From contig JAIQFR010000012.1 in the NCBI GenBank assembly GCA_020073205.1, forward strand, positions 747 through 64,746: DNA of 64,000 nucleotides, in the 5' to 3' direction. The translations under genes and the position numbers were made by a program. Below, in pieces: positions 29,076 to 54,875 of this stretch; within the stretch, counting starts at the first letter, position 1, and each line of letters starts with the position of its first letter. This stretch comes from Terriglobia bacterium (lineage in GTDB: Bacteria; Acidobacteriota; Polarisedimenticolia; Polarisedimenticolales; JAIQFR01). The notes beneath the pieces were generated by a model. That model had not been told where the DNA came from. It saw only the letters and a list, made by a program, of their open reading frames with translations, and did not search any database.

Positions 29076-29808
29076 GAGCCTGGCACTCGTCCGGCGCGAG
29101 CTCACGGCGTACTTCTCGTCGCCGCTCGCCTACGTGGTGCTGACCGCGTTCCTGTTCTTCAACGGGTACGTGTTCTGGCTGATCATCGCATTCCTCAACG
29201 ACCCGCGCACGCAGGCGATGGCGCCGCTCAGGCTGATGTTCGGCGGCACGCTCTTCTTCTGGCTGCTCCTGCTGTTCGTGGTGCCGGTGATCACCATGCG
29301 GCTGCTCGCCGAGGAGCGCCGCACCGGCACCCTAGAGGTGCTGCTCACCTCGCCGGTGAGCGAGGGCCAGGTGGTGATCGCGAAGTTCGTCGCGGCGCTG
29401 ATCTTCTACCTGTTCCTCTGGCTACCGACGGTGGTCTACGTGCTCATCCTCGGCAGCTACTCGAGCATCGACCCGGGGCCGGTGGGAGCGGGCTACCTGG
29501 GCATCGCTCTCTTGGGCGTCCTGTTCGCCGCCATCGGTTTGCTGACCTCGGCGCTCACGCGGAACCAGATCGTCGCCGCGATCTTCGCGTTCGCGCTCCT
29601 GATGGTGCTGTTCTCGATCGGGCTGCTCGAGCAGCTCGCCACATCTCCGTCGCTCAAGAGCGCGCTCTCCTACATGAACCTCTGGGACCACATGGACGAC
29701 TTCGCGCGCGGCCTCGTCGACACCCGCCACGTCGTCTACGACCTCAGCCTCGCAGGGCTGTTCCTCTTCCTCGCGACCAAGGCCCTCGAGGCCAAGAAGT
29801 GGAGGTGA
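29068..29808 (+). CDS. ABC-2 type transporter permease (GldF-like)
   Basis: GTG start overlaps the ATPase gene by 8 nt. It has six hydrophobic segments, and the EERRTGTLEVLLTSP motif is typical of ABC-2 permeases. Confidence 0.88.
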   Translation: MRKSLALVRRELTAYFSSPLAYVVLTAFLFFNGYVFWLIIAFLNDPRTQAMAPLRLMFGGTLFFWLLLLFVVPVITMRLLAEERRTGTLEVLLTSPVSEGQVVIAKFVAALIFYLFLWLPTVVYVLILGSYSSIDPGPVGAGYLGIALLGVLFAAIGLLTSALTRNQIVAAIFAFALLMVLFSIGLLEQLATSPSLKSALSYMNLWDHMDDFARGLVDTRHVVYDLSLAGLFLFLATKALEAKKWR

Positions 29809-29811
29809 GCG

Positions 29812-31245: not shown

Positions 31246-31254
31246 GAGTCCGCG

Positions 31255-32583
31255 ATGCGTCTCCTAAGGCTCGCCGTCCTCGCGGTCGTGGTGCTCTCCC
31301 TCGGCGCCTACATCTACTTCGTGGAGCGGCACGGCCCCTCCACCGACGAGTTCAAGCAGAGCCAGGACAAGCTGTTTCCTGGCCTGGACCCGGCGAAGAT
31401 CCGCCGCGTCGTGGTGACCCATCCGAAGGGCCGGTTCGATCTCGAGAAGGAGAACGGCTCCTGGAAGATCATGGCGCCGATCGCCGACGAGGCGAACGAC
31501 GGCGCCGTCACCGCCTTGCTTTCCTCGCTCGCAGGACTGAAGGCCGAGCGGACGCTGGCGGCGAAGGACGTCAAGCTCGGCGATTACGCGCTCGACAGGC
31601 CGGCGACGTCGGTCGTCGTCACCGACGACAAGGGCCAGGAGAGCACGCTCTCCCTCGGCGCCGAGATGCCGCTCGGCAACACCCGAGCCGCTCGAACCCG
31701 TGGCGACACGGTCTACGTGATCGCCAGGACCATCGCCACCGACGTCGAGAAGGACCTGTCGGGGTGGCGCTCCAACGCCCTCGTAAGGGTCGACGCGGCC
31801 GACGTCGCGTCGCTCACCATCATGGACGCCCGCGGGCGGGTGGCGCTGGCGCGCGCGGGAAGGGAGTGGACGCTGACCGAGCCGGTCGCCGACCTCGCCG
31901 AGCGGGAGAAGGCCGACGACGTCGTCTCCGATCTCTCGGCGGCGCGGATCAAGGAGTTCGTCGACGCGCCGGGCGACCTCGGGACGCTCGGCCTCGAGCC
32001 GCCGCAGCTCGAGATCACCCTCGTCCGCAAGGACGGCAAACCGCCGGTCCAGCTCGCCTTCGGCAGCGAGCGCGAGAAGGACGGCACGAAGCAGCGCGCC
32101 TGCAAGCGCGCCGGGCGCGTCACCTGGGTCGACGCGACGGCCGCCGCCAAGGCGTCCACCGCCCTCGCCGATTGGCGGTCGAAGAAGCTCGTCCGCCTCG
32201 ACGCCTGGTCGGCGGACATAGTCGAGATCACGGCCGGCAAGGAGAAAGCGAGCGTCGAGCGCAAGGACGGCGTCTTCAAGGCGGGCAACGTGGAGGTGGA
32301 CGGCGACGCGGTTTCGAATCGCCTCGACATTCTGGCGGACATGACGGTGACCGCCTTCGACAGGCCCAAGCCGACCGGCGACGCAATGGGCCTCGTCAAG
32401 GTGACCGCGGGGGGCGGTGCCACGGTGGAGGCGACCTTCTACGCCGGCGCAGGCGCGGGCGAGTCGATCGCCGTCGTTCCCGGTCGCGCCGGTGCGCTCG
32501 CCGTGGACGGCGCCAAGGTGAAGGAGCTGCTCAGCGACCCGGCGTCGCTCTCGAAACCCAAGGCCGAGCCGAAGACGAAGTAG
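31255..32583 (+). CDS. DUF4340-like protein
   Basis: N-terminal anchor (LRLAVLAVVVLSLGAYIYF) followed by repeated beta-rich modules. DUF4340 proteins typically follow gldG-like genes. Confidence 0.7.
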   Translation: MRLLRLAVLAVVVLSLGAYIYFVERHGPSTDEFKQSQDKLFPGLDPAKIRRVVVTHPKGRFDLEKENGSWKIMAPIADEANDGAVTALLSSLAGLKAERTLAAKDVKLGDYALDRPATSVVVTDDKGQESTLSLGAEMPLGNTRAARTRGDTVYVIARTIATDVEKDLSGWRSNALVRVDAADVASLTIMDARGRVALARAGREWTLTEPVADLAEREKADDVVSDLSAARIKEFVDAPGDLGTLGLEPPQLEITLVRKDGKPPVQLAFGSEREKDGTKQRACKRAGRVTWVDATAAAKASTALADWRSKKLVRLDAWSADIVEITAGKEKASVERKDGVFKAGNVEVDGDAVSNRLDILADMTVTAFDRPKPTGDAMGLVKVTAGGGATVEATFYAGAGAGESIAVVPGRAGALAVDGAKVKELLSDPASLSKPKAEPKTK

Positions 32584-37660: not shown

Positions 37661-38548
37661 TTACCGCGGTGCCGATTCCGAGGAGACCAGCGCGATCCGT
37701 ACTCCGACGGCGCTCCCGGAGACGAACGGGAGAATCTCGGGCCGGACCGCGCGCGACCGTGCGTGGAGGTGAACCATCCCCTTGCCGATGGCCCGGCCCA
37801 GCATCGCCGCGCCCACCACGTCGGAGAGCCAGTGGGCGTCGTGCTCCAGCCGGTGGACGCCGACGGCGCCGGCAAGCGCGTAGAGCGGCCACCGCACCGA
37901 GCGGTAAGGGTAGACCTCGCTCACGCTGGCCGCGAATGCGAAGGCGCCGATGGCGTCGCCGGAGACGAACGACGAGCTGCCACCGACCGTCGACCCGCGG
38001 GGCCCTTGGAAGTCGTACGGCCCGTTCGCGGTCGGCGGCCGCTCCCGGTGGGTGAGCGACTTGATCACCGCGCTCGCGCGGACCGCCCAGAACGCCGACT
38101 CCGCCGCGAGGAAGCCCGAGTCCGAGAGGCGCTCGTCCCGGAACGCGAGCCCCGCCACGAAGAGCCCCGCCCCGTAGAGCGTCAGCCGGCTTCCGATGAA
38201 GCGGTCGCGGATCGGGTCCACCAGGTCGATGACGGTTCTCGATCGGCGATCCTGGACGAAGTCGCGCGCGCGGCCGTCGAGCGGGATCAGCCCCACCGTG
38301 ACCGCCGAGCCGGCGGCGGCCCTCCCCCACTCGGCGGCGCTCCACGCGGCAGGGCGCGCCGCGAGGTTCAGCGGGTCCTTCACGAGCCACTCGAGGTACT
38401 TCGAGGCCCCCCGCTCGCGAACGTAAGGGAGGAAGGGTCCTTCGCCGGTCGCCGCGCACGCTGGCAGCGCCGTCGAGAGGCTCGCGGTAAGGTAGACCGC
38501 CATGGCGGCGAGCCGGACGGCTCGAGCGGCATTCCGCGGAGCGGTCAT
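37661..38548 (-). CDS. PAP2-superfamily phosphatase-like protein (variant motif 2)
   Basis: Signal/anchor N-terminus. Motif 1 is KSLTHRERP. Motif 2 is SGD where PSGH is expected. Motif 3 is HRLEHDAHWLSD. Confidence 0.75.
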   Translation of the reverse strand: MTAPRNAARAVRLAAMAVYLTASLSTALPACAATGEGPFLPYVRERGASKYLEWLVKDPLNLAARPAAWSAAEWGRAAAGSAVTVGLIPLDGRARDFVQDRRSRTVIDLVDPIRDRFIGSRLTLYGAGLFVAGLAFRDERLSDSGFLAAESAFWAVRASAVIKSLTHRERPPTANGPYDFQGPRGSTVGGSSSFVSGDAIGAFAFAASVSEVYPYRSVRWPLYALAGAVGVHRLEHDAHWLSDVVGAAMLGRAIGKGMVHLHARSRAVRPEILPFVSGSAVGVRIALVSSESAPR

Positions 38549-38623: not shown

Positions 38624-39913
38624 TCACGCTCGCGAGGGGATCCCGTCCGACGCGGCGGGCTCCTGCGGGAGCCCCTCGAGGACGTCCGTCCTCGCGTCAC
38701 GGTCCGCGCGGAACTCGCCGAGGGCGATGGGGACCGCCACCTTGAGCATGAGCGTGAAGATCAGGAAGCCGACGGAGAAGATCCCCGCGGCGATCCGAAG
38801 CTCGGTCAGCGTCGGGCTGTACTCGTAGATCTCGCCGAGCGTGTCGGGAGTCAATCCGGGGATGATGAGCCCCATCCCCTTCTCGATGTACACGCCCGCG
38901 TACGTCGCGAGGCAGCCGAGGTTGAGCGTCAGCCAGCGCCTCCGCGTGGCCGGAACGATGAAGAGCGCGAAGGCGAGCAGATTCAGCGCCACCGCGGACC
39001 AGGCGTACGGGACGAGCGTGCGGTGCGCTCCCAGCCCCGAATACCAGTACTTCGTGTAGAGCAGGTGCTGCGTGTCGGAGTAGAACTCCTTGAACGCCTC
39101 CGCGCCGTGGAGGAACAGGTTGAGGAACATCGCGTACGCCATCAGCTCCGCGATCTTGTGGATCGCGTCGTCCTGGATCTCGAACCGCGTGAATCGTCGC
39201 AGGAGCTGGAGCATGATCAGGAGGATCGCCGGACCGGAGCAGAACGCGGAGGCGAGGAACTGGGGGGCCAGGATGGACGAGTTCCAGTACGGGCGGGCGG
39301 CGAGCCCGTTGTACAGGAACGCCGTGACGGTGTGGATTCCCACCGCCATCGGAATCGAGAGGAGGACCAGCGGCACGACCAGACGCGTCGCGTACGGCCG
39401 GCCGGTGAAGGCCCGGTACAGGATGTGGGTCACCACCACGAGGTTGACGAGGAAGTACAGGTTGAGCACGATGACGTCCCACGCCAGGAGGGACGAGGGG
39501 AAGTTCAGGTGCCCGACCCACGGGATCAGGTGCCAGACCCGGTCCGGCCGCCCGATGTCCACGAGGACGAACAGGAAGCACATGACGATGGCGCTCACCG
39601 CCAGTAGCTCGCCGTACACGACGATCTGCCGGATCGGCTTCCAGTCGTAGACGTAGGCCGGGATGACCAGCACGACGGCGGCCGCGGCCACGCCCACCAG
39701 GAACGTGAAGTTGCCGATGTAGAAGGCCCAGCTGACCTGATCCCGCATGGCCGTGACGACGAGACCCGTCGAGAGCTGGCGGGCGTAGGCGAGTGCGCCC
39801 GACGCGATCAGCACGAGGAGGAACGCGACCCAGGTCCAGTACCCGGCGCTCCCGCGGAGGACCCGCCACAGGCTTCCCGCGACGAAGTGAGCGAAGAGTC
39901 GTGCGGTTCTCAA
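38624..39913 (-). CDS. NrfD/PsrC-family quinone-interacting membrane subunit (module 1)
   Basis: The 429-aa polytopic protein has a TTG start 7 nt after the FeS gene stop. Helix pattern and motifs (YWNSSILAPQFLASAF) match polysulfide-reductase NrfD-type subunits. Confidence 0.85.
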   Translation of the reverse strand: MRTARLFAHFVAGSLWRVLRGSAGYWTWVAFLLVLIASGALAYARQLSTGLVVTAMRDQVSWAFYIGNFTFLVGVAAAAVVLVIPAYVYDWKPIRQIVVYGELLAVSAIVMCFLFVLVDIGRPDRVWHLIPWVGHLNFPSSLLAWDVIVLNLYFLVNLVVVTHILYRAFTGRPYATRLVVPLVLLSIPMAVGIHTVTAFLYNGLAARPYWNSSILAPQFLASAFCSGPAILLIMLQLLRRFTRFEIQDDAIHKIAELMAYAMFLNLFLHGAEAFKEFYSDTQHLLYTKYWYSGLGAHRTLVPYAWSAVALNLLAFALFIVPATRRRWLTLNLGCLATYAGVYIEKGMGLIIPGLTPDTLGEIYEYSPTLTELRIAAGIFSVGFLIFTLMLKVAVPIALGEFRADRDARTDVLEGLPQEPAASDGIPSRA

Positions 39914-39920
39914 GGCCGCC

Positions 39921-40802
39921 CTACGTGCCGTAGAAGTAGAGGAACTTCGGCATCGTGCTCAGCTCCTCCTTCAGGACGAGCACGCGCTTGTGCTCGATGA
40001 TGTAGCGGATCTCGCCGCCCGGGTCGAGCAGGTCGCCGAACTTCCGCGCGCCCGCGGGGCAGACCTCGACGCACGCGGGGTACCGCCCGACGCGCGTGCG
40101 CTGGATGCAGAAGGTGCATTTCTCCACGACGCCCTTCGGCCGCGGCCGGTTGCCGAGGACGTGCATCCGCGGGTTGAGCTCGCCCGCGGGTATGGACGGC
40201 TCCTTCCAGTTGAAATGGCGGGCACCATAGGGACACGATGCCATGCAGCAACGGCAGCCGATGCACCAATCGTAGTCGATCACGACGATGCCGTCGGGCT
40301 CCTTCCAGGTCGCTCCGCTCGGGCACGTCTTCACGCAGGGCGGGTTCTCGCACTGCTGGCAGGCCACGGGAACGTAGAAGTGGCCTTCCTCCGGAACCTC
40401 CGCCGGATGGTAGTAGGGATCGGCGTGCGAGAAGTCCACGCCCCGCTCCTTCTCCATCGCGAGGACGCGGATCCACTGCACCGCTGGGTCCCGCGACGGG
40501 TTGTTCTCCTCGACGCAGGCGTACACGCAGCGGCGGCAGCCGACGCAGCGGGACAGGTCCAGCGCGTACGCGAACCGGACTCCCGGGATGGCGGGGGTGT
40601 CCGCGACCGTCACCGGCACGCCGTAGGTTTCGGTGTATCGGCGCTCCAGCTCCCGGAGCGACGCGCGCAGCCTCTCGCGGGGCATCTCGACGAGGCGTTT
40701 CGGCCCGCACGCCGTCAGGATCCAGGCGGCCCCGGCCGCGGCGGCGCACGAGACGAACTTCCTCCGCGAGAGACATTCCTCGCCGTTCCCGTCGCCTTTC
40801 AC
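39921..40802 (-). CDS. Tat-exported 4Fe-4S dicluster subunit (NrfC/PsrB/DmsB-like, module 1)
   Basis: Listed ORF 39921..41327 was trimmed to GTG 40802 (GGAAGGGGA upstream). Twin-arginine SRRKFV. Cys clusters CVGCRRCVYAC, CQQCENPPC, CIGCRCCMASCP and CTFC...CVEVCP. Confidence 0.88.
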   Translation of the reverse strand: MKGDGNGEECLSRRKFVSCAAAAGAAWILTACGPKRLVEMPRERLRASLRELERRYTETYGVPVTVADTPAIPGVRFAYALDLSRCVGCRRCVYACVEENNPSRDPAVQWIRVLAMEKERGVDFSHADPYYHPAEVPEEGHFYVPVACQQCENPPCVKTCPSGATWKEPDGIVVIDYDWCIGCRCCMASCPYGARHFNWKEPSIPAGELNPRMHVLGNRPRPKGVVEKCTFCIQRTRVGRYPACVEVCPAGARKFGDLLDPGGEIRYIIEHKRVLVLKEELSTMPKFLYFYGT

Positions 40803-40821
40803 GCAGGGTCCCCTTCCGTGC

Positions 40822-41358
40822 CTAGGGTCGCGACGGCCGCAGCGGCGCGGGCTTCGGTGCCAGCGGCCGGAACCTGGGCTGGTGCGGATTGTGACAGTTG
40901 GCGCACAGGAGGTACTTCTTTCGGCCGTTCCACTCCCCGGTGCGCCGGCCATGAACCCCCGCCCTCCAGTCCCTGAGCTTCTCGCCGTGGCACTGGCCGC
41001 ACAACAGGTAGGACTGCTCGAACGCGATCGGCTCCCCGCTGGCCAGGTGGAGACGGTCGCGGTTCTCCGCGTCGTGGCAGTCCAGGCACCACCGGTGCTG
41101 CTCGTCGTGCCGGAGCTCGATCTCCTGGTGCATGTCCGTGAGCCGGCGCCGCGTGCGGTTCGCCTCCATACCCGCGTGGCAGCTCGAGCACGGGAAGATC
41201 CCGTCGGAGAACGGTGGAGGAGGAACCTCGAGGTGCTGGTCGGACGACCCCGGCTCGTCCGGCGTCTCGGCGCGTCCCGCGGGCCCGCTGGCCAGAAGCA
41301 CCGCGATCGCCGCGAGGCGCAGCGCACCCGGGAGGCGGGATTCCACTCGGAGCCTCAT
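40822..41358 (-). CDS. Periplasmic tetraheme c-type cytochrome (module 1)
   Basis: Signal peptide plus four CxxCH motifs: CSSCH, CLDCH, CGQCH, CANCH. Confidence 0.9.
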   Translation of the reverse strand: MRLRVESRLPGALRLAAIAVLLASGPAGRAETPDEPGSSDQHLEVPPPPFSDGIFPCSSCHAGMEANRTRRRLTDMHQEIELRHDEQHRWCLDCHDAENRDRLHLASGEPIAFEQSYLLCGQCHGEKLRDWRAGVHGRRTGEWNGRKKYLLCANCHNPHQPRFRPLAPKPAPLRPSRP

Positions 41359-41361
41359 CGT

Positions 41362-41832
41362 CTACGTGTAGCGGAGCTCGACGACCCGCTGCATCTCGCG
41401 GAGCCACATCGTCTGGAAGACCTGGAGGCGGTGGCCGATCACGGCCGCGACGTTCCGGGTCACCACGTACGCCACGGACGGATGCGCGGAGAAATGGTCG
41501 AGCAGCGCGGCCCGCGAGAACGCGGTCAGCTCGCTGTCCACCGCCGCGGTGGCCTTCAGCGTGAACCGGTGGGGGGGGACGAGCCCCGACCATCCGAGGG
41601 TCTCCCCCGGGAGCCTCTCCTCGATGAGCACGTCCTCCTCCGCGCCGCGGACCTGCATCGGCAGCGTGAGCGTGACGCGCCCGCGCACGACCTGGAACAC
41701 GCTGGCGGCCGGCTCCCCGAGGCGGAACAGCACCCCGCCGGCCGGGACGGCCATCGGGGTCCCGATGGCCAGCAGGCGGTCCGCCTCGTCCCCGGAGAGC
41801 CCTTTCAGGAGATCGGTCTGAGCGCTCGGCAT
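41362..41832 (-). CDS. Stand-alone cyclic-nucleotide-binding (cNMP/Crp-type effector) domain protein, no DNA-binding domain
   Basis: ATG 41832 has GAGGTG 8 nt upstream; the listed GTG 41838 is an alternative. LFRLGEPAASVFQVVRGRV...GETLGWSGL fits the beta-roll cNMP-binding fold. The protein ends after about 157 aa with no HTH. Confidence 0.75.
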   Translation of the reverse strand: MPSAQTDLLKGLSGDEADRLLAIGTPMAVPAGGVLFRLGEPAASVFQVVRGRVTLTLPMQVRGAEEDVLIEERLPGETLGWSGLVPPHRFTLKATAAVDSELTAFSRAALLDHFSAHPSVAYVVTRNVAAVIGHRLQVFQTMWLREMQRVVELRYT

Positions 41833-41844
41833 CGTCACGACACC

Positions 41845-42159
41845 TCAGTTCACGAAGGGCGACGCCGTCCGGGAGTGGAGCGACTCCGGCGTCGGGACGT
41901 CGAGGAACGACTCCGCGGCGGCCTGCTCGAGCCGCACGTGGCGCTCGATGTGGCTGAGCAGCACCTCGAGCGGGATGGGGGGGGGCACGGCCGGCTTGGC
42001 CGATCCCCCGGCGAAGAACCTCGGCGTATCGAGGGCAAGCCTCGGATCGGGCCGGACCTCGGGACGGATCTCGGCGGCGTGACCGGTCCTGTCGAACATC
42101 AGGACGCACACCGCCGTGGCGATCACGCTGGTGAACACGATGGTCAGGAACATCATCAT
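41845..42159 (-). CDS. Small single-pass membrane protein, unknown function
   Basis: Listed start 42201 lies inside a sigma54 -12 element. I reassigned it to ATG 42159, preceded by GGAGGAGGG-N6 (MMMFLTIVFTSVIATAVCVLMF = TM helix). Confidence 0.55.
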   Translation of the reverse strand: MMMFLTIVFTSVIATAVCVLMFDRTGHAAEIRPEVRPDPRLALDTPRFFAGGSAKPAVPPPIPLEVLLSHIERHVRLEQAAAESFLDVPTPESLHSRTASPFVN

Positions 42160-42195
42160 GGCGAGCCCTCCTCCGTGCGCCGACGGGGTCAGCGA

Positions 42196-42213
42196 TTGCA
42201 TTCCGCCTGCCAG
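42196..42213 (-). promoter_or_regulatory. Sigma54 (-24/-12) promoter candidate for the module-1 operon
   Basis: The minus strand reads CTGGCAGGCGGAATGCAA, i.e. TGGCAG-N5-ATGCA versus consensus TGGCAC-N5-TTGCA, with canonical GG/GC spacing. It lies about 40 nt upstream of the RBS+ATG at 42159. A sigma54-dependent activator is encoded divergently. Confidence 0.65.
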
Positions 42214-42297
42214 CGGCGGCAGGGTCGCCGGAACGCCGTGAAGCGCGGTTTCCCGGGACCTTGGCGCGGCGAGACCCGCGAGATCCGGCTCGGTCCC

Positions 42298-42341
42298 GAC
42301 AGATTGTCAGGACCTGCCTGACGGAATGTCAGAAGTTGACA
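42298..42341. promoter_or_regulatory. Cluster of TGTC/GACA inverted repeats, candidate enhancer-binding-protein sites (UAS)
   Basis: Sequence is GACAgatTGTCAGGacctgCCTGACggaaTGTCAgaagtTGACA. It contains three overlapping inverted repeats sharing a TGTCA/TGACA core, about 100-145 bp upstream of the sigma54 -12 element (minus-strand sense). Confidence 0.45.
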
Positions 42342-42364
42342 CCGCCGATTCGCCCGCGCAGTAT
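42336..42364 (+). promoter_or_regulatory. Sigma70-like promoter candidate for the kinase/regulator operon
   Basis: TTGACA (42336..42341) - 17 nt - CAGTAT (42359..42364). The -35 is part of the last TGTCA/TGACA inverted repeat. Confidence 0.35.
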
Positions 42365-42416
42365 GGGAAACGTCGCTGCCGGCTCGCCTTGCGCGTGGGA
42401 TTTCCCCGGAGCCCGG

Positions 42417-44287
42417 ATGAGACTCCGCCTGACCAGCATGACGGCCGGGCTGACCGTGGGGGTCACGGCTGCGGTGGCGATCGCCTGCGCCGCGGGCACC
42501 TACCTGTACTCCGTCCATCACTTCCGGACCCTCCTGGAGACCGCGAGGTCGACGGCGCTGGCCCAGGGACAGATGATCCGGGCCGGCCTCGAGCACCAGA
42601 TGATGGAGAACGACCGCAGCCTCATCGGGAGCATGATCGAGACCTTCGGCCGGGAGCCGAACGTCGAGAAGGTCATGCTGCTCGACCGCGAGGGGCAGGT
42701 GCGGTACACCAGCGCGCCGCAGGTGACCGAGCGGCAGCTGAAGATCGATTCGCCGACCTGCCAGGCGTGCCACCGCCTCCCGCCCGAGCAGCGAGCCTCG
42801 AGCCGGGTCATCGAGACGGGCCAGGGGACGCTGCTGCGCACGGTGATCCCGGTGCGCAACCGGGAGGCGTGCCACCGGTGCCACGATCCGGGCCACCGGA
42901 TCAACGGCATCCTCATCGTGGACGTCGACGCCGGCGAGATCCGGGCGACGATGAATCGCGATCTCCGGTGGATGGTCGGGGGGAGCGCCGGCCTGGCGCT
43001 CCTCCTGGTCGGCGCCATCGCGGTAGTGGTGCGACTCTCGGTGATGGGCCGGCTCCAGCGATTCGAGACCACCGCGCGCCGGATCGCGGCGGGCGATCTC
43101 GAGCGGCGCGTGCCCGTGAAGGGCTCCGACACCCTCGCCTGGCTCGGCCGGGAGTTCAACTCCATGGCCGACACCATGACGGGACTGCTCGCGGACGTCC
43201 GCGACCAGCGCCAGGAGCTCGAGACCGTCATCAACGGCATCGACGACGGCATCGTGGTCCTGGACCGGGATCGGAAGATCCTCGCCGCCAACGACGCGTT
43301 CCTGCGCCGCACCGGCCGGGATCGCGCCGGCGTCCTCGGCTCTTCGTGCCTCGAGACCGCGGCGGGCGCGTGCGGCGCCGTCGATTGCCCGACCCTGGCG
43401 TGCCTCAGGACCGGGGAGCACCAGGTCCGGATCTGCCAGCGCCGGACGCCGTCGGGCGAGCCCGCCTGGGAGGAGGTGCACGCGTCGCCGATCCGGCGGC
43501 CTTCCGGCGCCATCGCGCAGGTCGTCGAGGTCTGGCGGGACATCTCGGAGCGGCGCGCGGCCGAGGCCCGCCTCGCGGAATCCCACCGGCTGGCGTCGCT
43601 GGGGCTGCTGGCGTCGGGGTTCTCGCACGAGCTGAACACGCCCCTCGCCACGATCCTCGCCTGCGTCGAGGGAATCCAGCGCTCCGCGCGAGCGGAGGGC
43701 CGCTCGGACCCCGAGGACTGGCGCCGGATCGGGGAAAACGCTTCGATCGCGCGGGAGCAGCTTCTCCGGTGCCGCGGGATCACGCAGCACTTTCTCCGCC
43801 TGTCGAGAGGGCAGCGGTCGCCCGGCGACCTCGTGGACCTCCCGGAGACCCTCGCGGCCGTGACCCGGCTGATCGAGCCCACGGCCCGCGCGGCCTCCGT
43901 GACGATCCGCGTGGAGCCCGTCGCGCCGGGGACGTCCGTCCGGGTCAATGAGGCCGACCTGCACCACGTGCTGCTGAACCTGGCGCTGAACGCGATCCAG
44001 GCGTGCGGGCGGGACGGCCGGGTCGTCCTGGGCGCCGAAGGCGGCGATCCCGTCCGGATCCGCGTCATCGACGACGGGTGCGGCATCGCGTCGGAGAAGC
44101 AGCAGCGGATCTTCGAGCCGTTCTTCAGCGATCGGCGTGGAGGAACGGGACTCGGCCTGTTCCTGTCCCTCGACCTGGTCCGCCAGTGGGGCGGCGACAT
44201 CCGCGTCCTAAGCGCGCCCGGGCGCGGCTCCACGTTCGAGGTGTCGATTCCCGCCGCGGGAGGCACCGCGCCGCCCGGAGGGGCCCC

Positions 44288-44291
<4 letters not shown>
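42417..44291 (+). CDS. Sensor histidine kinase: TM - periplasmic loop with two CxxCH heme-c motifs - TM - HAMP - PAS - HisKA - HATPase
   Basis: ATG 42417 inside listed ORF 42261..44291 (ATG 42363 is an alternative). CQACH lies at 42759..42773 and CHRCH at 42870..42884, between two TM segments. H-box is FSHELNTPL; the N/G boxes are LNLALNAIQA and DDGCGI...GTGLGL. Confidence 0.9.
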
Positions 44292-45649
<1,358 letters not shown>

Positions 45650-45786
45650 GTCCGAGCACGCCGCCGCATCGCCCGGGTTCCGCCGCGCGGGACTTTCATC
45701 TTGACATCGACGCGATACCTGGTAACACATGACGCCCGAGAGGGCGTCCATTGCGGACATTGGAGTCCTCTTTCCAGGAGGCACGG

Positions 45787-46935
45787 ATGAGGCGCGTGGG
45801 GTTCGTCGTGGCGGTCGCGTGCGCGCTCGCGTGCTCGGCGCCGGGTCTCGCGACCCCGATCGTCAAGGGACGGTTCAGCCGGAGCGACACGTGCGGGGAG
45901 TGCCATCGCGACATCTACCGGATGTGGCGGGCGTCGGCGCACGCCAGGTCGATGGAGGATCCGGTCTTCCTCGACGCGTACCGCCAGACGAAGGACCGCG
46001 AGGGAGCGGCGGTGGGCCGAACCTGCCTCGAGTGCCACGCGCCCGTGGTGAGCGTGACGAAGGACTACGACCTCACCCAGAAGCTGTCCTGGGAGGGCGT
46101 CAGTTGCGACGTGTGCCACTCGATCACCGCGGTGGAAACCTCGGCGGCGGGAGCGAGGTACACGCTGGACGTCGGGGTCGTGAAGCGCGGGCCGATCAAG
46201 GACGCGTCCTCGCAGGCGCACGACGTGCGTTACTCCGAGCTGCACGCGCAGGCGCTGGTGTGCGCGCCGTGCCACGAGTTCGCCAGCCCCGACGGCACGC
46301 CGCTCATGACCACGTACTCCGAGTGGCGGCAGAGCGAAGCGGGGAGATCCGGCAAGAGCTGCCAGCGCTGCCACATGGGGCGGACGAAGGCCGACGTCGT
46401 GGATCCCATCGTCAAGAGGGTGCCCGACGCCGAGGTGAACCTGCACGAAGTTCCGGGGGGACACTCCCTGGAGCAGCTCAATCGGGCCCTGGACGTCGCC
46501 CTCCTGCCGAGGCGCGAGTCCGACGCGATCCTCCTCGACGTGCGGCTCCGGAACCGCGGAGCGGGCCACGCCGTTCCCACCGGAATGCCGGGCCGCCATG
46601 TGATCCTGAGCGTGAAGGTCCGCGCCGGCGGCAAGGACCCCGACGAGGAGCGGCGGACCTATGGGAAGAACTTCGTCACCGCGGGAGGAGAGCCGATCTC
46701 CAGGGACAGCTCCTACTTCGCCCGGGGCGTCCGTCTCGCCTCCGACACCCGGCTCAAGGCCGACGAGGAGCGCACCGAGCACTTCCGCTTCAAGGTCCCG
46801 GCGGACGCCACCGCGTTCGTCACGGTGAAGCTGGAGTACGAGCACGCTCCGACCGGGACCGACGAGAACCGGACCTCGATCACGTTCTTTTCCGAGGAGC
46901 GCGCGCTGCTCCCCGGGAAGCCGCCCGGGTCATGA
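45787..46935 (+). CDS. Pentaheme c-type cytochrome with C-terminal non-heme beta-rich domain (module 2)
   Basis: AGGAGG lies upstream of ATG 45787, inside listed ORF 45751..46935. Signal peptide (lipobox-like ALACS). CxxCH motifs: CGECH, CLECH, CDVCH, CAPCH, CQRCH. The C-terminal roughly 170 aa contains NRGAGHAVPTGMPG. Confidence 0.88.
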   Translation: MRRVGFVVAVACALACSAPGLATPIVKGRFSRSDTCGECHRDIYRMWRASAHARSMEDPVFLDAYRQTKDREGAAVGRTCLECHAPVVSVTKDYDLTQKLSWEGVSCDVCHSITAVETSAAGARYTLDVGVVKRGPIKDASSQAHDVRYSELHAQALVCAPCHEFASPDGTPLMTTYSEWRQSEAGRSGKSCQRCHMGRTKADVVDPIVKRVPDAEVNLHEVPGGHSLEQLNRALDVALLPRRESDAILLDVRLRNRGAGHAVPTGMPGRHVILSVKVRAGGKDPDEERRTYGKNFVTAGGEPISRDSSYFARGVRLASDTRLKADEERTEHFRFKVPADATAFVTVKLEYEHAPTGTDENRTSITFFSEERALLPGKPPGS

Positions 46936-47015
46936 CGGGAGGCTCGGCCCGCGCGCGCGGCGTCGAGCGGCCCGGACGAGGAGGGGACGGTGGGAATTCA
47001 GAGGGTGGCATCGGC

Positions 47016-47477
47016 ATGAGGGGACGATTCCGGGAGGTTCAGCACCTCGTCCGCGCGGCGCTCCTGTTCCTGGCGGGCGTCGCCGCGTTCCTCCTGCTAC
47101 GGCAATCGCTGGTGCCCAAGGGCTTCGGCGAGTACGGGCACTTCCGGAGCGGAGCGCTCGAGGACAACCGCGGCCGCCCGCTCCAGTTCGCGGGGATGGC
47201 CGCCTGCGAGGAGTGCCATTCCGACGTCGTCGAAGCGAGGAAGGGGAGCAAGCACGCGGCGGTGCGCTGCGAAGCCTGCCACGGACCCCTCGCGGCCCAT
47301 GCCTCGGACCCGACGACGGGAAAGCCCGTTCGGCCGGACCCGAAGACCGTCTGCCTCGTCTGCCACCGCGACAACGTCGCCAAGCCGAGAGGGTTCCCGA
47401 AGGTCGATCCCGGGGAGCACGGCGGCGGCGAGGCGTGCAACACCTGCCACAAGCCCCACCATCCGGAAGTCGCCTAG
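47016..47477 (+). CDS. Membrane-anchored tetraheme c-type cytochrome (module 2)
   Basis: ATG 47016 inside listed ORF 45729..47477. N-terminal TM (AALLFLAGVAAFLLL). CxxCH motifs: CEECH, CEACH, CLVCH, CNTCH. Confidence 0.88.
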   Translation: MRGRFREVQHLVRAALLFLAGVAAFLLLRQSLVPKGFGEYGHFRSGALEDNRGRPLQFAGMAACEECHSDVVEARKGSKHAAVRCEACHGPLAAHASDPTTGKPVRPDPKTVCLVCHRDNVAKPRGFPKVDPGEHGGGEACNTCHKPHHPEVA

Positions 47478-47488
47478 GAGGTTCGCGG

Positions 47489-48271
47489 ATGTCCGTCGAT
47501 CGCCGGGGATTCCTGAAGGAGGGCGGGAGGCTCCTGGTCCTCTCCGCCGCGGCCGCCAGCGCCCTCGATCTCGTGCTGGCCGGCCGCCCCGAGGAGGCCG
47601 ATGCCTACAAGCTCGCCGACCACTGGTGGGGCATGATCATCGACATCAACAAGTGCATCGGCTGCGGCAATTGCGTGCGCGCGTGCAAGATCGAGAACGA
47701 CGTCCTCAAGGAGCCGTACTACTTCCGCACCTGGGTCGAGCGATACCACGTGCCGGCCAAGGACCTCGTGCGCCCCGAGGCCGAGGACCACCCCGAGGTG
47801 GACTCCCCGAACGGCGGGTTCGACGGGTTCAAGGAGAAGTACCACGCCGGGGACGGCTCGAAGAACTTCTTCGTCCCGAAGCTCTGCAACCACTGCGCAC
47901 ATTCCCCGTGCGTGCAGGTCTGCCCGGTGGGCGCGACGTTCGAGAGCCCCGACGGCGTCGTGCTGGTGGACAAGACGTACTGCCTCGGCTGCCGGTACTG
48001 CGTCCAGGCGTGCCCCTACGGCTGCCGGTTCATCGACCCGCGCACCGAGACCGTGGACAAGTGCAGCCTCTGCTACCACCGGATCACGAAGGGGCTGACC
48101 ACCGCCTGCTGCGAGACGTGCCCCACCGGCGCGCGGACCCTCGGCGACCTCAAGGACCCCCGCGATCCGATCCACGAGTTCCTGAGGACCCACGGCGTGC
48201 AGGTGCTGAAGCCGCAGATGGCCACCGGCGCCAAGGCCTACTACAACGGCCTCGACGGCTCGGTGAGGTAG
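47489..48271 (+). CDS. Tat-exported 4Fe-4S dicluster subunit (NrfC/PsrB-like, module 2)
   Basis: ATG 47489 inside listed ORF 47213..48271. Twin-arginine RRGFLK. Cys clusters CIGCGNCVRAC, CNHCAHSPC, CLGCRYCVQACP and CSLC...CCETCP. Confidence 0.9.
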   Translation: MSVDRRGFLKEGGRLLVLSAAAASALDLVLAGRPEEADAYKLADHWWGMIIDINKCIGCGNCVRACKIENDVLKEPYYFRTWVERYHVPAKDLVRPEAEDHPEVDSPNGGFDGFKEKYHAGDGSKNFFVPKLCNHCAHSPCVQVCPVGATFESPDGVVLVDKTYCLGCRYCVQACPYGCRFIDPRTETVDKCSLCYHRITKGLTTACCETCPTGARTLGDLKDPRDPIHEFLRTHGVQVLKPQMATGAKAYYNGLDGSVR

Positions 48272-48278
48272 CGAAGCG

Positions 48279-49451
48279 ATGGAGAGCGTGCTGCAGGGCG
48301 TCCAGGGCTTCATGTACCCCAACGAGGTGGAGCTCCAGTGGAGCATCCTCATCGTGCTCTACCCGTTCGTGACCGGGCTCGTCGCCGGCGCGTTCATCCT
48401 CGCCTCGCTCGAGCGGGTCTTCAACGTCGAGGCGGTGAAGCCCACCTACCGGCTCGCGCTCCTCACCGCACTGGCGTTCCTGATCGCGGCGCCGCTCCCG
48501 CTGCAGCTCCACCTCGGCCACCCGGAGCGCTCGTACGAGATGTACACGACGCCGCACACCAGCTCCGCCATGGCGATGTTCGGCTTCGTGTACCTGTGGT
48601 ACCTGCTGGCGGTGCTGGTCTTCGAGATCTGGCTCGACTACCGCAAGGACATCGTGCTCACGGCCCGGGCCAGCCGCGGGGCGAAGCGCCTCCTGTACCG
48701 GGCCCTCTCCCTGGGCTCGGACGACATCAGCCCCCGCTCGCTCGAGATCGACTCGAGGGTCGGGAGGTTCGTCACGATCGTCGGGATCCCGTCCGCGTTC
48801 CTCCTCCACGGCTACGTGGGGTTCATCTTCGGCTCCGTGAAGGCGAACCCGTGGTGGTCGACGCCGCTGATGCCCATCGTGTTCCTGTTCTCGGCCATCG
48901 TGTCCGGCATCGCCGCCGTGCTGCTCCTCTACATGGCCCTGTCGTGGGCGCGGGGACGCCAGCCCGACATGGCGTGCGTGGACACCATGGGCCGCTACCT
49001 CCTGTACGCGTTCATCATCGACTTCTCCCTCGAGATGCTGGACCTCATCCACCGGATCTACGAGGCCGACGAGTCGTTCAAGAGCCTCGACTTCATGGTC
49101 CACACGCGGCTGTACACGTCGCAGGTGATCCTGCAGATCATCGTGGGCACCCTCGTCCCGATCGGGCTCCTCGCCCTGGTCCAGGTCGTGCGGACCACCG
49201 CGCCCGCCCGGAAGGGGTTCTACGTCGCCGCCGGGGCGCTGACCCTCGTCGGCATCTTCGCGATGCGCTGGAACGTCGTGATCGGCGGGCAGCTGTTCTC
49301 CAAGAGCTTCCTCGGGTACACGACCTACAAGATGCACTTCGCCACCCGCGAGGGACTGTTGCCCGCGATCCTCGTGCTGCTCCTTCCGTTCGGGATCCTC
49401 TGGGAACTGCTGAAACTGCTGCCTCCCTGGCCGGACGAGGGATCCGCGTAG
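48279..49451 (+). CDS. NrfD/PsrC-family membrane subunit (module 2)
   Basis: The 390-aa polytopic membrane protein lies immediately after the FeS subunit. Its helix pattern resembles the module-1 NrfD-like protein. Confidence 0.87.
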   Translation: MESVLQGVQGFMYPNEVELQWSILIVLYPFVTGLVAGAFILASLERVFNVEAVKPTYRLALLTALAFLIAAPLPLQLHLGHPERSYEMYTTPHTSSAMAMFGFVYLWYLLAVLVFEIWLDYRKDIVLTARASRGAKRLLYRALSLGSDDISPRSLEIDSRVGRFVTIVGIPSAFLLHGYVGFIFGSVKANPWWSTPLMPIVFLFSAIVSGIAAVLLLYMALSWARGRQPDMACVDTMGRYLLYAFIIDFSLEMLDLIHRIYEADESFKSLDFMVHTRLYTSQVILQIIVGTLVPIGLLALVQVVRTTAPARKGFYVAAGALTLVGIFAMRWNVVIGGQLFSKSFLGYTTYKMHFATREGLLPAILVLLLPFGILWELLKLLPPWPDEGSA

Positions 49452-49542
49452 CCGTTCCCGCCGGCCGCGCCTCGCTGGACGCGGAGGGGATCGGGGTCCA
49501 CGTTGTCGGCCGGGCCGTCCGGCGGCCCGAGGGGGCGAGATC

Positions 49543-49953
49543 ATGGACAAGGACCGAGGCGAGCTGTTGAGGGATCTCGGATACTCCGAGAAGGCGATCC
49601 GGTTCATCGCCGAGGACAGGAACTTCGGCCAGCTCCCGGTCTTCTCGGTGAAGTCGTCGCACCAGGGACAGTGCGGCGACGTGCTGCGACTCTACCTCGA
49701 CGTGGACCGCGGCGTCATTCGCGAGGCCAGCTTCGAGCACGTCGGGTGCACGGGGCTCCAGGCCAGTGCGGCCGGCGTGACCACGATGATCCGCGGAATG
49801 ACGCTCGACGACGCGGCGAAGCTCGACGTCAAGGACATCGTGGACTTCCTGGGGAAGATCCCGGACGCCAAGCTCGACTGCGCCCAGCTCGCCCGCGACA
49901 CCTTGCGGAAGGCGATCCAGGAGCTGAAGCAGGCCTCGACCCCGGCCTCCTGA
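49543..49953 (+). CDS. NifU-N/IscU-like Fe-S cluster scaffold domain protein
   Basis: The 136-aa product has the three scaffold Cys contexts GQCGDV, VGCTGLQAS and LDCAQLA. Confidence 0.75.
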   Translation: MDKDRGELLRDLGYSEKAIRFIAEDRNFGQLPVFSVKSSHQGQCGDVLRLYLDVDRGVIREASFEHVGCTGLQASAAGVTTMIRGMTLDDAAKLDVKDIVDFLGKIPDAKLDCAQLARDTLRKAIQELKQASTPAS

Positions 49954-52760: not shown

Positions 52761-53528
52761 TCAGGCGACGTCGAAACAGAGGCTGCAACAGGTCACGGCG
52801 CCCTCGGCCTTCGCCAGCTCCGACACGTCCACGGTCACCACCCGGATCCCCCGCGCCTCGAGACGGCGGAGGGTCCTGGGAAATGCCGAAGGGTAGACGA
52901 CCGTTCCGCCGACGAGCAGGGCGTTGGCGGCGAACGGCTCCGACGGCTCGATCTCGATCCGGTCGTGGGCGGCGAAGGCGCCGGGGTCCGCCCAGCCCGG
53001 ATGGATCAGCACGCCGTCGTCCGAGATCCGCGTGACCGCGGACTTCAGGTGCAGGCAGCCGGAGAGGGACACGGGCCTCACCTCGTATCCGAAGGGCGAC
53101 ACGATCCGGCAGAGCTCATCGACTCCCCGCGCGTCCGTCCGGGACGACCGGCCCACGAAGATCGTCTTCTCGAGCACGAGGACGTCGCCGCCGTCCAGAG
53201 TCGCCGGCGACGGGATCGTGGCGGTCGGCCGGTACGGTCGAACCGCCTCGGCGACGGCGACCACCTCGGGCCGCCGCGAGGGCGCACCCGGACGGGTCAG
53301 GATCGCGATCTCGTCCAGCACGACCGCGACGTCCTCGACGAAGACGGAGTCGGGCATGTCCGGCTCCGCCGGGAGCCGCAGGATCGCGCAGCCCAGGTCC
53401 GTCAGGCGGCGCTCGTACCGATGGTGCTGATCCCGCGCGCGCTCGGGGTCGATCGGCTGGCGCGCGACGTGGGTCAGCTCGCATCGTGCGAGGGCCGGGC
53501 TCACTTCCCTGGTGATCGCCAGCTTCAT
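52761..53528 (-). CDS. Dimethylarginine dimethylaminohydrolase-like / amidinotransferase-superfamily enzyme
   Basis: Listed ORF 52761..54842 was trimmed to ATG 53528 (MKLAITREVSP...). DSVFVED, GCLHLKS and the near-C-terminal nucleophile Cys context EGAVTCCSL. Confidence 0.8.
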   Translation of the reverse strand: MKLAITREVSPALARCELTHVARQPIDPERARDQHHRYERRLTDLGCAILRLPAEPDMPDSVFVEDVAVVLDEIAILTRPGAPSRRPEVVAVAEAVRPYRPTATIPSPATLDGGDVLVLEKTIFVGRSSRTDARGVDELCRIVSPFGYEVRPVSLSGCLHLKSAVTRISDDGVLIHPGWADPGAFAAHDRIEIEPSEPFAANALLVGGTVVYPSAFPRTLRRLEARGIRVVTVDVSELAKAEGAVTCCSLCFDVA

Positions 53529-53681
53529 GGAGCGTTGCCTCCCGGAGCTCCGGAATCCGCGGGACGCGCGGACCCGCATAGCATACGATGGCTGAACGCC
53601 CGGAGGCTGCGACGGCTGATCGCGACCGCGCTCGCCGATCCGCAGGGAGTCCGCCGCGCGCCCCGCAACGTGGAGGTCGCC

Positions 53682-54875
53682 ATGCGCCATCGATCGTCGA
53701 TCCCCCGCACCGCCCTCGCAGCGATCCTGGCCGCCGCCGGATTCGCGGCCCAACTCCCCGCCCGCGCCGAGGAGTCGAAGCCGCCGGCCCCTCGGGCCCG
53801 GTGCGAGGAAGCGATCCCGGCCGTGTACGACCGGGTCTCGCCCGCCGTGGTCTCGATCGCGGCGATGTCCGTGAACCCCTACGATCTGGACGAGCGCATG
53901 ACCCGGGTGGTCGGCTCCGGAGTGATCGTCGACAAGTCGGGGCTCGTCCTGACCAACTCCCACGTGGTCTTCTCGCGGCAGGTCATCACGGTGACGCTGG
54001 ACGATGGGTCCACGCTCCCGGCCCGCCTCGTCGGGGCCGACCCGATCTTCGACGTCGCGCTGGTCCGCATCCCCACGCCGAGTTCCGGCGAGCTGCCCGT
54101 CGCCCGACTCGGAGATTCGGAGAACGTCCCGGTGGGTGAGGAGGTTCTCGCGATCGGGAACCCGTTCGGCCTCGACCAGACGCTCACCCGTGGGATCGTC
54201 TCCGCGGTCAACCGGCTGCTCCCCAACATCCCGCTCTCGCTCACCGAGCCGCTGATCCAGACCGACGCCCCCATCAACCCCGGGAGCTCGGGAGGGCCCC
54301 TGATGGACCGATGCGGCGACGTGATCGGCATCACGACCGCGATCCTCCCCGAGGCGCAGAACATCGGATTCGCGATCCCGATCGATCTGATCCGGGGGGT
54401 GCTCCCGTCGCTGGTCGAGCACGGCCGGGTGATCCGGCCCTGGCTCGGAGTCCAGGGCCAGCTCGTGAGCCGACCCCTCAAGGACCTCCTCCGCGTCCCT
54501 CTCGTGGACGGCTTCCTGGTCGAGGTCGTCGAGCCCGGTAGTCCCGCGGAGAAGGCGGGACTGCACGGCGGCCGGCTCGACCTCACGATCGGCGGCGACA
54601 CCGTGTTGATCGGGGGGGACGTGATCACCGAAATCGACGGATCGCCCGTGTCGGATCTCGAGAAGATCGACAGGGCGCTGCGTTCGCTCGAGGTCGGCGC
54701 GACGACACACCTCAAGATCTTTCACGACGGAGCGACGCGCGAGGTGGACATCACCCTCGTCGAGCGGCCGCTGCTCCCGGAGGACGTCCCCTTCCGCCGC
54801 TCGGAGAGCCCGAGGAATACCACCGCGAGGTCGGGCGCCCACGCTCCCTTCCGCGGCATCCGGCGCGGAATCTGA
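53682..54875 (+). CDS. HtrA/DegP-family serine protease with PDZ domain
   Basis: ATG 53682 inside listed ORF 52965..54875. Signal peptide. Triad contexts TNSHVV, DVALVR and GSSGGPL. PDZ region (GFLVEVVEPGSPAEKAGL). Confidence 0.92.
   Translation: MRHRSSIPRTALAAILAAAGFAAQLPARAEESKPPAPRARCEEAIPAVYDRVSPAVVSIAAMSVNPYDLDERMTRVVGSGVIVDKSGLVLTNSHVVFSRQVITVTLDDGSTLPARLVGADPIFDVALVRIPTPSSGELPVARLGDSENVPVGEEVLAIGNPFGLDQTLTRGIVSAVNRLLPNIPLSLTEPLIQTDAPINPGSSGGPLMDRCGDVIGITTAILPEAQNIGFAIPIDLIRGVLPSLVEHGRVIRPWLGVQGQLVSRPLKDLLRVPLVDGFLVEVVEPGSPAEKAGLHGGRLDLTIGGDTVLIGGDVITEIDGSPVSDLEKIDRALRSLEVGATTHLKIFHDGATREVDITLVERPLLPEDVPFRRSESPRNTTARSGAHAPFRGIRRGI

Follow-up and report, generated by a model that had tools for sequence, protein, structure and literature searches.

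A 64,000-nucleotide stretch of contig JAIQFR010000012.1 from a Terriglobia bacterium (hereafter the window), whose source sample is a freshwater-sediment metagenome, contains two sets of multihaem cytochrome, iron-sulfur (FeS), and NrfD-type membrane protein genes arranged divergently around a sensor kinase and a sigma54-dependent regulator. This island raises the question of what two such sets, here termed modules 1 and 2, do side by side, and with which partner they exchange electrons. We propose that it encodes two distinct menaquinol:periplasmic-cytochrome oxidoreductases together with a periplasmic pentahaem cytochrome likely served by both, a reading to which we assign a probability of roughly 0.55. 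A first-pass annotation, made from the letters alone, had described a duplicated pair of quinol-linked modules without a catalytic subunit or terminal partner; its functional picture is partly supported here, and the island is a real and coherent respiratory unit.

The GC content of the window is approximately 71%, so that most listed open reading frames (ORFs) are shadows; genes were therefore called from third-position GC together with the ORFs and cross-checked against relatives. All 12 island genes are present, five on the minus strand and seven on the plus strand (Table 1), and Pfam recovers every domain named in the first-pass annotation, whose account of the module contents and their divergent layout agrees with our coordinates. 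One start codon is revised. The small single-transmembrane (TM) protein of module 1 had been begun at the ATG at 42201, which lies inside the sigma54 promoter; we prefer 42159, a conserved ATGATGATG start preceded by a conserved ribosome-binding site, which gives a product of 104 aa that matches its relatives. Each module is a cytochrome c/4x[4Fe-4S]/NrfD core without a molybdopterin subunit, and the two FeS proteins, FeS1 and FeS2, have 16 cysteines each, arranged as four ferredoxin motifs. Pfam scans of the island and its flanks detect neither a molybdopterin gene nor NrfA, and no dsrAB, dsrMK, molybdoenzyme, or terminal reductase gene is found among the scanned window genes.

The modules had been called paralogous, but the pairwise comparison argues otherwise. 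NrfD1 and NrfD2 are 19% identical (E 4e-5), FeS1 and FeS2 32% identical, and the two tetrahaem cytochromes, which are barely alignable, 23% identical (E 0.009). These values rule out a recent duplication, and NCBIfam assigns the two modules to different curated families; judged by their sequences, they are distinct families and not copies of one another.

The membrane subunit of module 1, NrfD1, matches the Pfam NrfD family (7e-36) and exceeds the cut-off of the NCBIfam DsrP equivalog NF045798 (415.9 bits, cut-off 350) over profile positions 3-344 of 346, scoring no more than 30 bits on all other NrfD-type NCBIfam models. FeS1 carries the twin-arginine translocation (Tat) motif SRRKFV, matches Fer4_11 and related Pfam families, and agrees in its length of 293 aa with the gene called in L002, the closest related locus; its best NCBIfam match is DsrO, at 173.8 bits and thus below the cut-off of 200. 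The four CxxCH motifs of the tetrahaem cytochrome also occur in 60 of 62 relatives. Its cysteines are confined to the haem motifs and six additional histidines are conserved, which points to bis-His ligation of the haems and argues against a DsrJ-like cysteine ligand; the NCBIfam DsrJ model yields no match for this protein. Two further genes complete the module. The cyclic nucleotide-binding (cNMP) domain protein (PF00027, 6.5e-9) lacks a DNA-binding domain and contains a conserved GWS.L.PPhRfTL motif and a C-terminal helix. The single-TM protein has no match in a Pfam search and carries one hydrophobic helix (residues 4-22) and a conserved C-terminal HVRLEQAAAESF motif.

Module 1 is widely distributed. 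A scan of one genome per species identified at least 580 carriers, of which 80 loci with 65-84% NrfD1 identity were kept; in the database, its top 120 relatives share 78-98% identity with NrfD1. The kept loci include Bryobacterales, Vicinamibacterales, Terriglobales, Holophagae, and Thermoanaerobaculia as well as Gemmatimonadota, Myxococcota-type metagenome-assembled genomes (MAGs), Planctomycetota including Brocadiaceae, and one Verrucomicrobiia-labelled MAG. Paludibaculum, Candidatus Solibacter, and Holophaga are among the MAG labels. Wherever the contig leaves upstream room, the NrfD gene comes after those for the tetrahaem and FeS proteins (69/69 loci). In a closer group of 46 loci, defined by an NrfD1 identity of 73% or more, 44 carry the cNMP gene, 43 encode the single-TM protein, and 40 each have the kinase and the regulator; all four are missing from the 11 loci of the Holophagae/Planctomycetota group. 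Clustering all ORFs of the 80 loci revealed no further conserved neighbour or catalytic subunit, and dsrMK stands beside the trio in 0 of 83 loci. One locus, L001 (a 2.47-Mb acidobacterial contig), encodes NiFe hydrogenase small and large subunits, a cytochrome b domain, and a HycI protease at 14084-18215, 3 kb downstream of module 1.

A comparable gene set has been described by comparative genomics in cable bacteria, in which a bis-His tetrahaem cytochrome is encoded at a separate locus together with homologues of DsrO and DsrP and a small single-TM protein (PMC13047784). This DsrOhPh-tetrahaem set also occurs in some Desulfobulbales, in Gamma- and Betaproteobacteria, and in organisms without sulfur metabolism; it has no assigned function, was formerly a candidate alternative complex III, and is proposed to transfer electrons from quinol to the periplasm (PMC13047784). 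A preprint on the DsrMKJOP structure by cryo-electron microscopy names the complex DsrOhPhCyt (10.64898/2026.08.25.746951). The likeness of module 1 to it is one of architecture and family: both are operons of a bis-His tetrahaem cytochrome with DsrO and DsrP homologues apart from dsrMK, and the single-TM gene of module 1 parallels that of the cable-bacteria locus. Module 1 differs in its cNMP-domain protein, its regulator pair with a di-haem kinase, and its sigma54 promoter, and its phyla (Acidobacteriota, Gemmatimonadota, Planctomycetota, and Myxococcota-type MAGs) are not reported in those papers; all 80 kept loci belong to phyla other than those of the cable-bacteria and proteobacterial sets. 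Thus, module 1 is most likely a very widespread, highly conserved but uncharacterised complex of the DsrOhPh-tetrahaem kind. Our literature search found no earlier description of it in Acidobacteriota, and what goes beyond the cable-bacteria papers is its spread across taxa, the gene for the cNMP-domain protein, and the regulators dedicated to it.

Module 2 comprises an anchored tetrahaem cytochrome, FeS2, and NrfD2, headed by the pentahaem gene. The cytochrome has four CxxCH motifs and an N-terminal TM helix at residues 10-28, with orthologues of 153 aa in L002, L087, and L088. FeS2 (Fer4_11, 1.7e-25) bears the Tat motif RRGFL, and its best NCBIfam matches are both below cut-off: TtrB at 201.7 bits (cut-off 416) and DsrO at 178.2 (cut-off 200). 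NrfD2 matches Pfam NrfD (1.9e-40) and is far from the cut-off of every NCBIfam model; its best 120 relatives are 78-91% identical. Hydropathy-based counts of TM helices in the NrfD proteins were too imprecise, and a fold search was used instead. The AlphaFold (AF2) model of NrfD2 (predicted local distance difference test score, pLDDT, 71; predicted template-modelling score, pTM, 0.78) resembles ActC of alternative complex III with a template-modelling score of 0.69-0.76, compared with 0.42 for the eight-helix PsrC.

The same three parts make up Cbc4 of G. sulfurreducens (CbcS/CbcT/CbcU, GSU0068-0070), in which CbcS is an anchored tetrahaem cytochrome with a linker, CbcT a four-cluster FeS protein, and CbcU NrfD-like (10.1101/2025.04.14.648717). 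This, too, is a likeness of architecture. The first haem cysteine of CbcS may fall near residue 64, as it does in the module 2 cytochrome, a weak indication since it comes from primer-derived peptides in the CbcS supplement. Module 2 differs in the pentahaem gene ahead of it, and Cbc4 itself is without an assigned role. Since the three-gene core also occurs alone in L090, L091, and L092, module 2 is, by gene order and family, a conserved stand-alone unit with the Cbc4 (CbcSTU) architecture. The likeness of the island to DsrJOP and Cbc-type complexes, drawn in the first-pass annotation, is apt. Neither module belongs with NrfABCD, PsrABC, TtrABC, or QrcABCD; scores on the NrfC/NrfD, TtrB/TtrC, and QrcC/QrcD models are far below their cut-offs. 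In the three genomes with the stand-alone core, a protein of about 576-593 aa without a Pfam match adjoins the module-2-type NrfD gene (L091, 9209-10990; L092, 9217-10989; L090, 9253-10983, minus strand); it has no counterpart in the window.

Several observations suggest that both modules act on menaquinol. Both NrfD proteins retain the helix-2 acidic/His residue and downstream serine of the proposed quinone site, which Calisto and Pereira tied to quinone binding (PMC8076601): in NrfD1, D119 and S140/141 fit the DsrP-type pattern of that study, while in NrfD2, H78 and S96 are invariant and fit the NrfD/DmsC-type pattern. Both are closest to ActC, by sequence for NrfD1 (the closest PDB sequence in a phmmer search, 8e-13) and by fold model for NrfD2, and alternative complex III (ActABCDEF) shares the core of haem c, FeS, and NrfD subunits that oxidises quinol and reduces periplasmic cytochromes. 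The modules differ from it in composition. The matches of FeS1 (293 aa) and FeS2 (260 aa) to ActB (930-1040 aa) are confined to its C-terminal FeS part, neither protein has its molybdopterin-like domain, and each operon has a single NrfD protein as opposed to ActC plus ActF, with no ActD or ActE. Upstream of the island, the window also contains a menaquinone cluster at 14.75-21.6 kb, in which MenD, MenB, and MenA exceed NCBIfam cut-offs while MenF-, MenH-, and MenE-like genes are best matches that score below them. This cluster, called complete in the first-pass annotation, is real, but neither MenC nor MenG is seen in its region. The quinone-site residues, the likeness to ActC, and the menaquinone genes were counted in favour of menaquinol oxidoreductases.

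The menaquinone cluster is part of a chorismate-to-menaquinone supercluster (9188-21616). It begins with an ORF at 9188-12775 that matches EPSP synthase, shikimate kinase, and shikimate dehydrogenase and may be several genes merged by the ORF caller, continues with chorismate synthase, DAHP synthase (minus strand), and an isochorismate synthase-like gene, and ends with MenD, MenH, MenB, MenA, a MenE-like gene, and a 4HBT thioesterase.

Electrons could also run the other way. One or both modules might be periplasmic cytochrome:menaquinone reductases like QrcABCD, perhaps one in each direction, taking electrons from periplasmic donors (H2, formate, Fe(II), reduced sulfur, or humics) and delivering them through cytochromes to the menaquinone pool. 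Qrc, with the same kind of cytochrome/FeS/NrfD core, reduces menaquinone (PMC6303296, PMC13059093); QrcABCD and NhcABCD of sulfate reducers resemble the modules in having such a core without a catalytic molybdoenzyme and in linking periplasmic cytochromes to menaquinone. The hydrogenase genes near module 1 in L001 would fit as a donor, and an import/export pair would suit the retention of two unlike modules together in several gene orders. However, module 1 comes closest to DsrOP among curated families, for which quinol oxidation is proposed at DsrP, the modules fall far below the QrcC and QrcD cut-offs, no QrcB-like subunit with a molybdopterin fold is present, and no donor-oxidising enzyme is conserved near module 1. 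We consider the reverse direction rather unlikely.

The pentahaem cytochrome suggests where the electrons of the two proposed menaquinol oxidoreductases may go. Its profile matches T. tepidum c552 (5ze8, 3e-28) and the Geobacter selenoenzyme MccSep (9wt8, 2.6e-12) in PDB, and its AF2 model (pLDDT 79) aligns with 5ze8 in Foldseek over 411 columns (template-modelling score 0.67, E 2.5e-16). It contains five CxxCH motifs and a C-terminal beta-sandwich with an H-x-x-P-T/D-G-x-P motif. Based on profile and predicted fold, it is a member of the PHC family, which has the fold of T. tepidum c552 and ExtKL-MccSep. The PHC gene lies directly ahead of a quinol-oxidising membrane module in all eight genomic contexts surveyed (the window, L002, and L084-L089), and the type of module varies. 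A module-2 type follows in the window, L002, L087, and L088; a module-1 type, its NrfD 70% and its cytochrome 66% identical to those of module 1, follows in L086; and Rieske plus cytochrome b genes, often fused to a multihaem domain, follow in L084, L085, and L089. The last arrangement is paralleled in Geobacter, in which extKL adjoins ExtO (Rieske) and ExtP (cytochrome b). Because PHC relatives head operons with three kinds of quinol-oxidising module, the pentahaem is likely the encoded periplasmic partner. The simplest reading is that the PHC cytochrome is a periplasmic acceptor fed by different quinol dehydrogenases and that the island unites two of them with this acceptor. The earlier statement that the terminal partner is not encoded here thus becomes doubtful.

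Two further cytochrome arrangements were seen. Behind a Rieske gene, a single protein of 953-1005 aa joins cytochrome b to a multihaem cytochrome c domain in L084 (8757-11618), directly after the PHC gene, and in L092 (3613-6630), immediately upstream of the module-2-type unit. Protein P0241 (794 aa) has 10 CxxCH motifs and two PHC profile matches, and is a tandem double PHC cytochrome.

The PHC pentahaem might instead be a terminal reductase of polysulfide/S0, selenite, or another small oxidant, making module 2 a complete quinol:substrate reductase. The first-pass annotation saw no catalytic subunit; no molybdopterin subunit is indeed present, but the pentahaem is homologous to a polysulfide reductase, and T. 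tepidum c552 has a suggested role in sulfur metabolism. Like MccSep in Geobacter, it adjoins a quinol-oxidising complex, and the motif GAGHAVPTGMPGR does not vary; the residue aligned with selenocysteine (Sec) 325 of MccSep is Met267, and Met occurs there in 30/30 and 118/120 close relatives. MccSep, however, requires Sec325 and the haem-ligating Cys239 (10.1101/2025.11.18.688581). In the window protein, which shares with MccSep and c552 the five CxxCH motifs and the PHC fold, the first is Met, and Leu173/Met174 align with Cys239/240 in columns that vary among L, I, M, and V. Since both residues are replaced, membership in MccSep is rejected by its defining residues. The score on the ExtKL NCBIfam model (80.5 bits, cut-off 250) is low, and no porin or rhodanese genes are nearby. 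Among the best 150 representatives of the wider PHC family (581 clusters with E-values of at most 1e-30), the Sec position holds L, M, I, S, T, or V and never Cys. Six extra invariant histidines in the pentahaem would suffice for five bis-His haems. A reductase role is therefore improbable.

Control of the island is best seen at module 1. By Pfam, the kinase comprises a periplasmic sensor, HAMP, PAS, HisKA, and HATPase domains; two CxxCH motifs, 37 residues apart in the periplasmic domain, are kept in 39/49 relatives. The sensor domain has a weak Pfam match to Mcp40H-20_sensor, and its best PDB matches, both marginal, are 3b47 (E 0.016) and 3b42 (E 0.033), aligned on the second CxxCH. These are the haem-c PAS sensors of the Geobacter chemoreceptors GSU0582 and GSU0935, which differ in having one haem motif and a methyl-accepting chemotaxis protein output, as opposed to two haem motifs and a histidine kinase output. 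Gene callers give a 624-aa kinase in relatives, which corresponds to the start at 42417; an alternative ATG lies at 42363, and the surrounding GCGCAGTATGGG is conserved in three loci.

The module 1 operon has a sigma54 element, TGGCAG-N5-ATGCA, at a distance of 53 nt ahead of it. The pattern TGGCA-N7-TGCA has this single match on either strand of the 64-kb window, with 0.08 expected by chance, and the element recurs at an identical offset in L001 and L002. A relaxed form occurs at this offset in 26/52 loci compared with 10/520 control windows. Approximately 100-130 bp upstream of the promoter, a conserved block contains the palindromes GTCAGG-N5-CCTGAC and GTCA-N5-TGAC (42304-42341), which may be activator binding sites. 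Conserved synteny and this conserved promoter make the link of the two-component system to module 1 well supported; for module 2, which in the first-pass annotation flanks the same dedicated system, no sigma54 promoter was found before the module, the anchored cytochrome gene, or the IscU gene. A conserved TTGACA-N17-TAACAC element precedes module 2 and suggests a sigma70-like promoter.

This difference in promoter type raises the possibility that the modules are functionally unrelated neighbours, module 1 with the two-component system forming one unit and module 2 with the PHC gene an independent operon. Approximately 90% of loci have module 1 without module 2, and module 2 stands alone in L090-L092. 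Against this, a module-2-type unit lies no more than 10 kb from module 1 in 7 of 80 species loci and additionally in L087, in at least five gene orders, a co-location far above chance for single-copy genes. In L087, the module-1-type trio is directly followed by a complete PHC-module-2 set, and the PHC gene of L086 is joined to a module-1-type operon. We therefore regard mere adjacency as quite unlikely.

Far less probable still is that module 1 supplies the JOP subunits of a DsrMKJOP complex for sulfite reduction whose genes are split, dsrMK and dsrAB lying elsewhere in the genome: NrfD1 passes the DsrP equivalog, DsrO is the best match of FeS1, and dsr genes are reported for some Acidobacteriota (PMC6018796, PMC10564751), but FeS1 falls short of the DsrO cut-off, nothing matches DsrJ, dsrMK does not adjoin the trio in any of the 83 loci and is not found among the scanned window genes, and the tetrahaem has four haems and no spare cysteine where DsrJ has three haems with one Cys/His-ligated. 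In published work, DsrOhPh-tetrahaem is regarded as a complex in its own right, found also where sulfur metabolism is lacking, and the trio extends to Gemmatimonadota, to Planctomycetota with Brocadiaceae among them, and to other phyla. For the same scores, the missing DsrJ and dsrMK, and the bis-His tetrahaem, module 1 was rejected as a canonical DsrJOP. The first-pass annotation had allowed that the modules might fall inside a known complex; module 1 proves to be no piece of canonical DsrMKJOP.

What module 1 does share with DsrMKJOP is a DsrP-like NrfD protein, an FeS protein of DsrO type with four clusters, and a multihaem subunit in the periplasm, and this likeness provides a likely model for its mechanism. 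The cryo-electron microscopy preprint concludes that DsrP is the site of quinol oxidation in DsrMKJOP, with protons given off to the periplasm and electrons handed to DsrO and then to DsrJ (10.64898/2026.08.25.746951). From gene content, family assignments, conservation, synteny, and promoter elements, we infer that the products of each module assemble into a complex of this general type. By analogy, module 1 would oxidise menaquinol at a periplasm-facing site of the DsrP-like subunit, release the protons outside, and pass electrons through four FeS clusters to the bis-His tetrahaem cytochrome. In the Acidobacteriota-type complex, the single-TM and cNMP-domain proteins may join at the cytoplasmic face, possibly with a regulatory or docking role. 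The operon would be read from the sigma54 promoter once the divergently encoded NtrC-type regulator activates it; this regulator would in turn answer to the kinase, whose two periplasmic c-type haems may report periplasmic redox state or a haem ligand. Module 2 is predicted to be read from the sigma70-like promoter or by read-through from the regulator genes, and the PHC pentahaem at its head would serve as a dedicated periplasmic acceptor or hub that passes electrons onward.

Four points weigh against two menaquinol oxidoreductases sharing one cytochrome. The direction of electron flow is not readable from sequence, and the related Qrc complexes run opposite, from cytochrome to quinone. The PHC gene accompanies module 1 or 2 in a minority of genomes (1 of 57 scan loci), and module 2 occurs alone in L090-L092, so that PHC is no obligatory partner. 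As no sigma54 promoter is found at module 2, its control by the two-component system is unsupported beyond adjacency. Lastly, the metatranscriptomes from the study behind this metagenome have no sequence words in common with the window, and their contigs yielded only homologue fragments of less than 90% identity.

Table 1. Features of the respiratory island, with positions counted from the first nucleotide of the window
Feature	Positions	Strand	Basis
NrfD1, DsrP-like cofactor-less quinone-interacting membrane subunit, 429 aa	38624-39913	-	Pfam NrfD, NCBIfam DsrP
FeS1, DsrO-like Tat-exported 4x[4Fe-4S] protein, 293 aa	39921-40802	-	GTG start
Periplasmic tetrahaem cytochrome c of module 1, 178 aa	40822-41358	-	4 CxxCH
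Cytoplasmic cNMP-binding-domain protein, 158 aa	41362-41838	-	PF00027
Small single-TM protein, 104 aa, start corrected	41845-42159	-	Hydrophobic helix; no Pfam match
Sigma54-type -24/-12 promoter, TGGCAG-N5-ATGCA	42197-42212	-	Pattern search and conservation
Conserved palindromes, candidate activator sites	42304-42341	no strand	Three-way intergenic alignment
Sensor histidine kinase, periplasmic di-haem c domain, 624 aa	42417-44291	+	Pfam, 2 CxxCH
NtrC-type sigma54-dependent response regulator, 453 aa	44288-45649	+	Response_reg, Sigma54_activat, HTH_8
PHC-family pentahaem cytochrome, C-terminal beta-sandwich, 382 aa	45787-46935	+	5 CxxCH, profile, fold
Membrane-anchored tetrahaem cytochrome c of module 2, 153 aa	47016-47477	+	4 CxxCH, N-terminal TM
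FeS2, Tat-exported 4x[4Fe-4S] protein, 260 aa	47489-48271	+	Fer4_11, RRGFL
NrfD2, quinone-interacting membrane subunit, 390 aa	48279-49451	+	Pfam NrfD
IscU/NifU_N-like protein, 136 aa	49543-49953	+	NifU_N 9e-24 (Pfam)

The IscU-like gene at the end of the island had been included in module 2. It has a counterpart in 0 of 83 related loci, the closest relative L002 included, and its product is probably a neighbour only, outside the system. A gene for a PAP2-family phosphatase (37661-38548) follows NrfD1 on the minus strand after a gap of 75 bp; it also lacks a counterpart in related loci, which have a lactate permease or other genes there instead. Rfam and tRNA scans of the window gave no match, which indicates that no riboswitch precedes the cytochrome genes.

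Elsewhere in the window, adjacent genes at 21733-24740 encode a caspase-like protein (Peptidase_C14, 601 aa) and a clostripain-like protein (Peptidase_C11, 418 aa), followed on the opposite strand by a 364-aa protein without a Pfam match. A PAS-GGDEF-EAL protein and then an ABC-2 type transporter set with ABC_transp_aux and DUF4340 proteins occupy 25847-32583. At 52761-54875, two long ORFs overlap on opposite strands; the plus-strand ORF contains trypsin-like and PDZ (HtrA-like) domains, and the minus-strand ORF, with a weak arginine deiminase match only, is probably a shadow.

A broader and far more speculative proposal, to which we lend little weight, is that the DsrOhPh-type trio with its cNMP-domain and single-TM proteins could be a ligand-gated, proton-motive menaquinol:cytochrome c oxidoreductase that acts as the main "complex III" under anaerobic or micro-oxic conditions, both in the Acidobacteriota of soils and sediments and in several further phyla, with PHC an unrecognised periplasmic hub or terminal reductase interchangeable among three quinol dehydrogenases. 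Acidobacteriota are among the commonest bacteria of soils and sediments, and their anaerobic electron transport is poorly known. A complex only lately named in cable bacteria appears to rank among the best-conserved respiratory gene sets in several phyla, its NrfD subunit being 65-84% identical in more than 580 species. In Acidobacteriota it is accompanied by a dedicated sensor of haem type, a sigma54 switch, and two subunits of unexplained role predicted to face the cytoplasm. In addition, a large pentahaem family, kin to a newly discovered sulfur reductase, would be wired to three interchangeable quinol dehydrogenases. Both points offer targets for testing how these organisms respire under anoxic conditions, whether with iron, humics, or sulfur.

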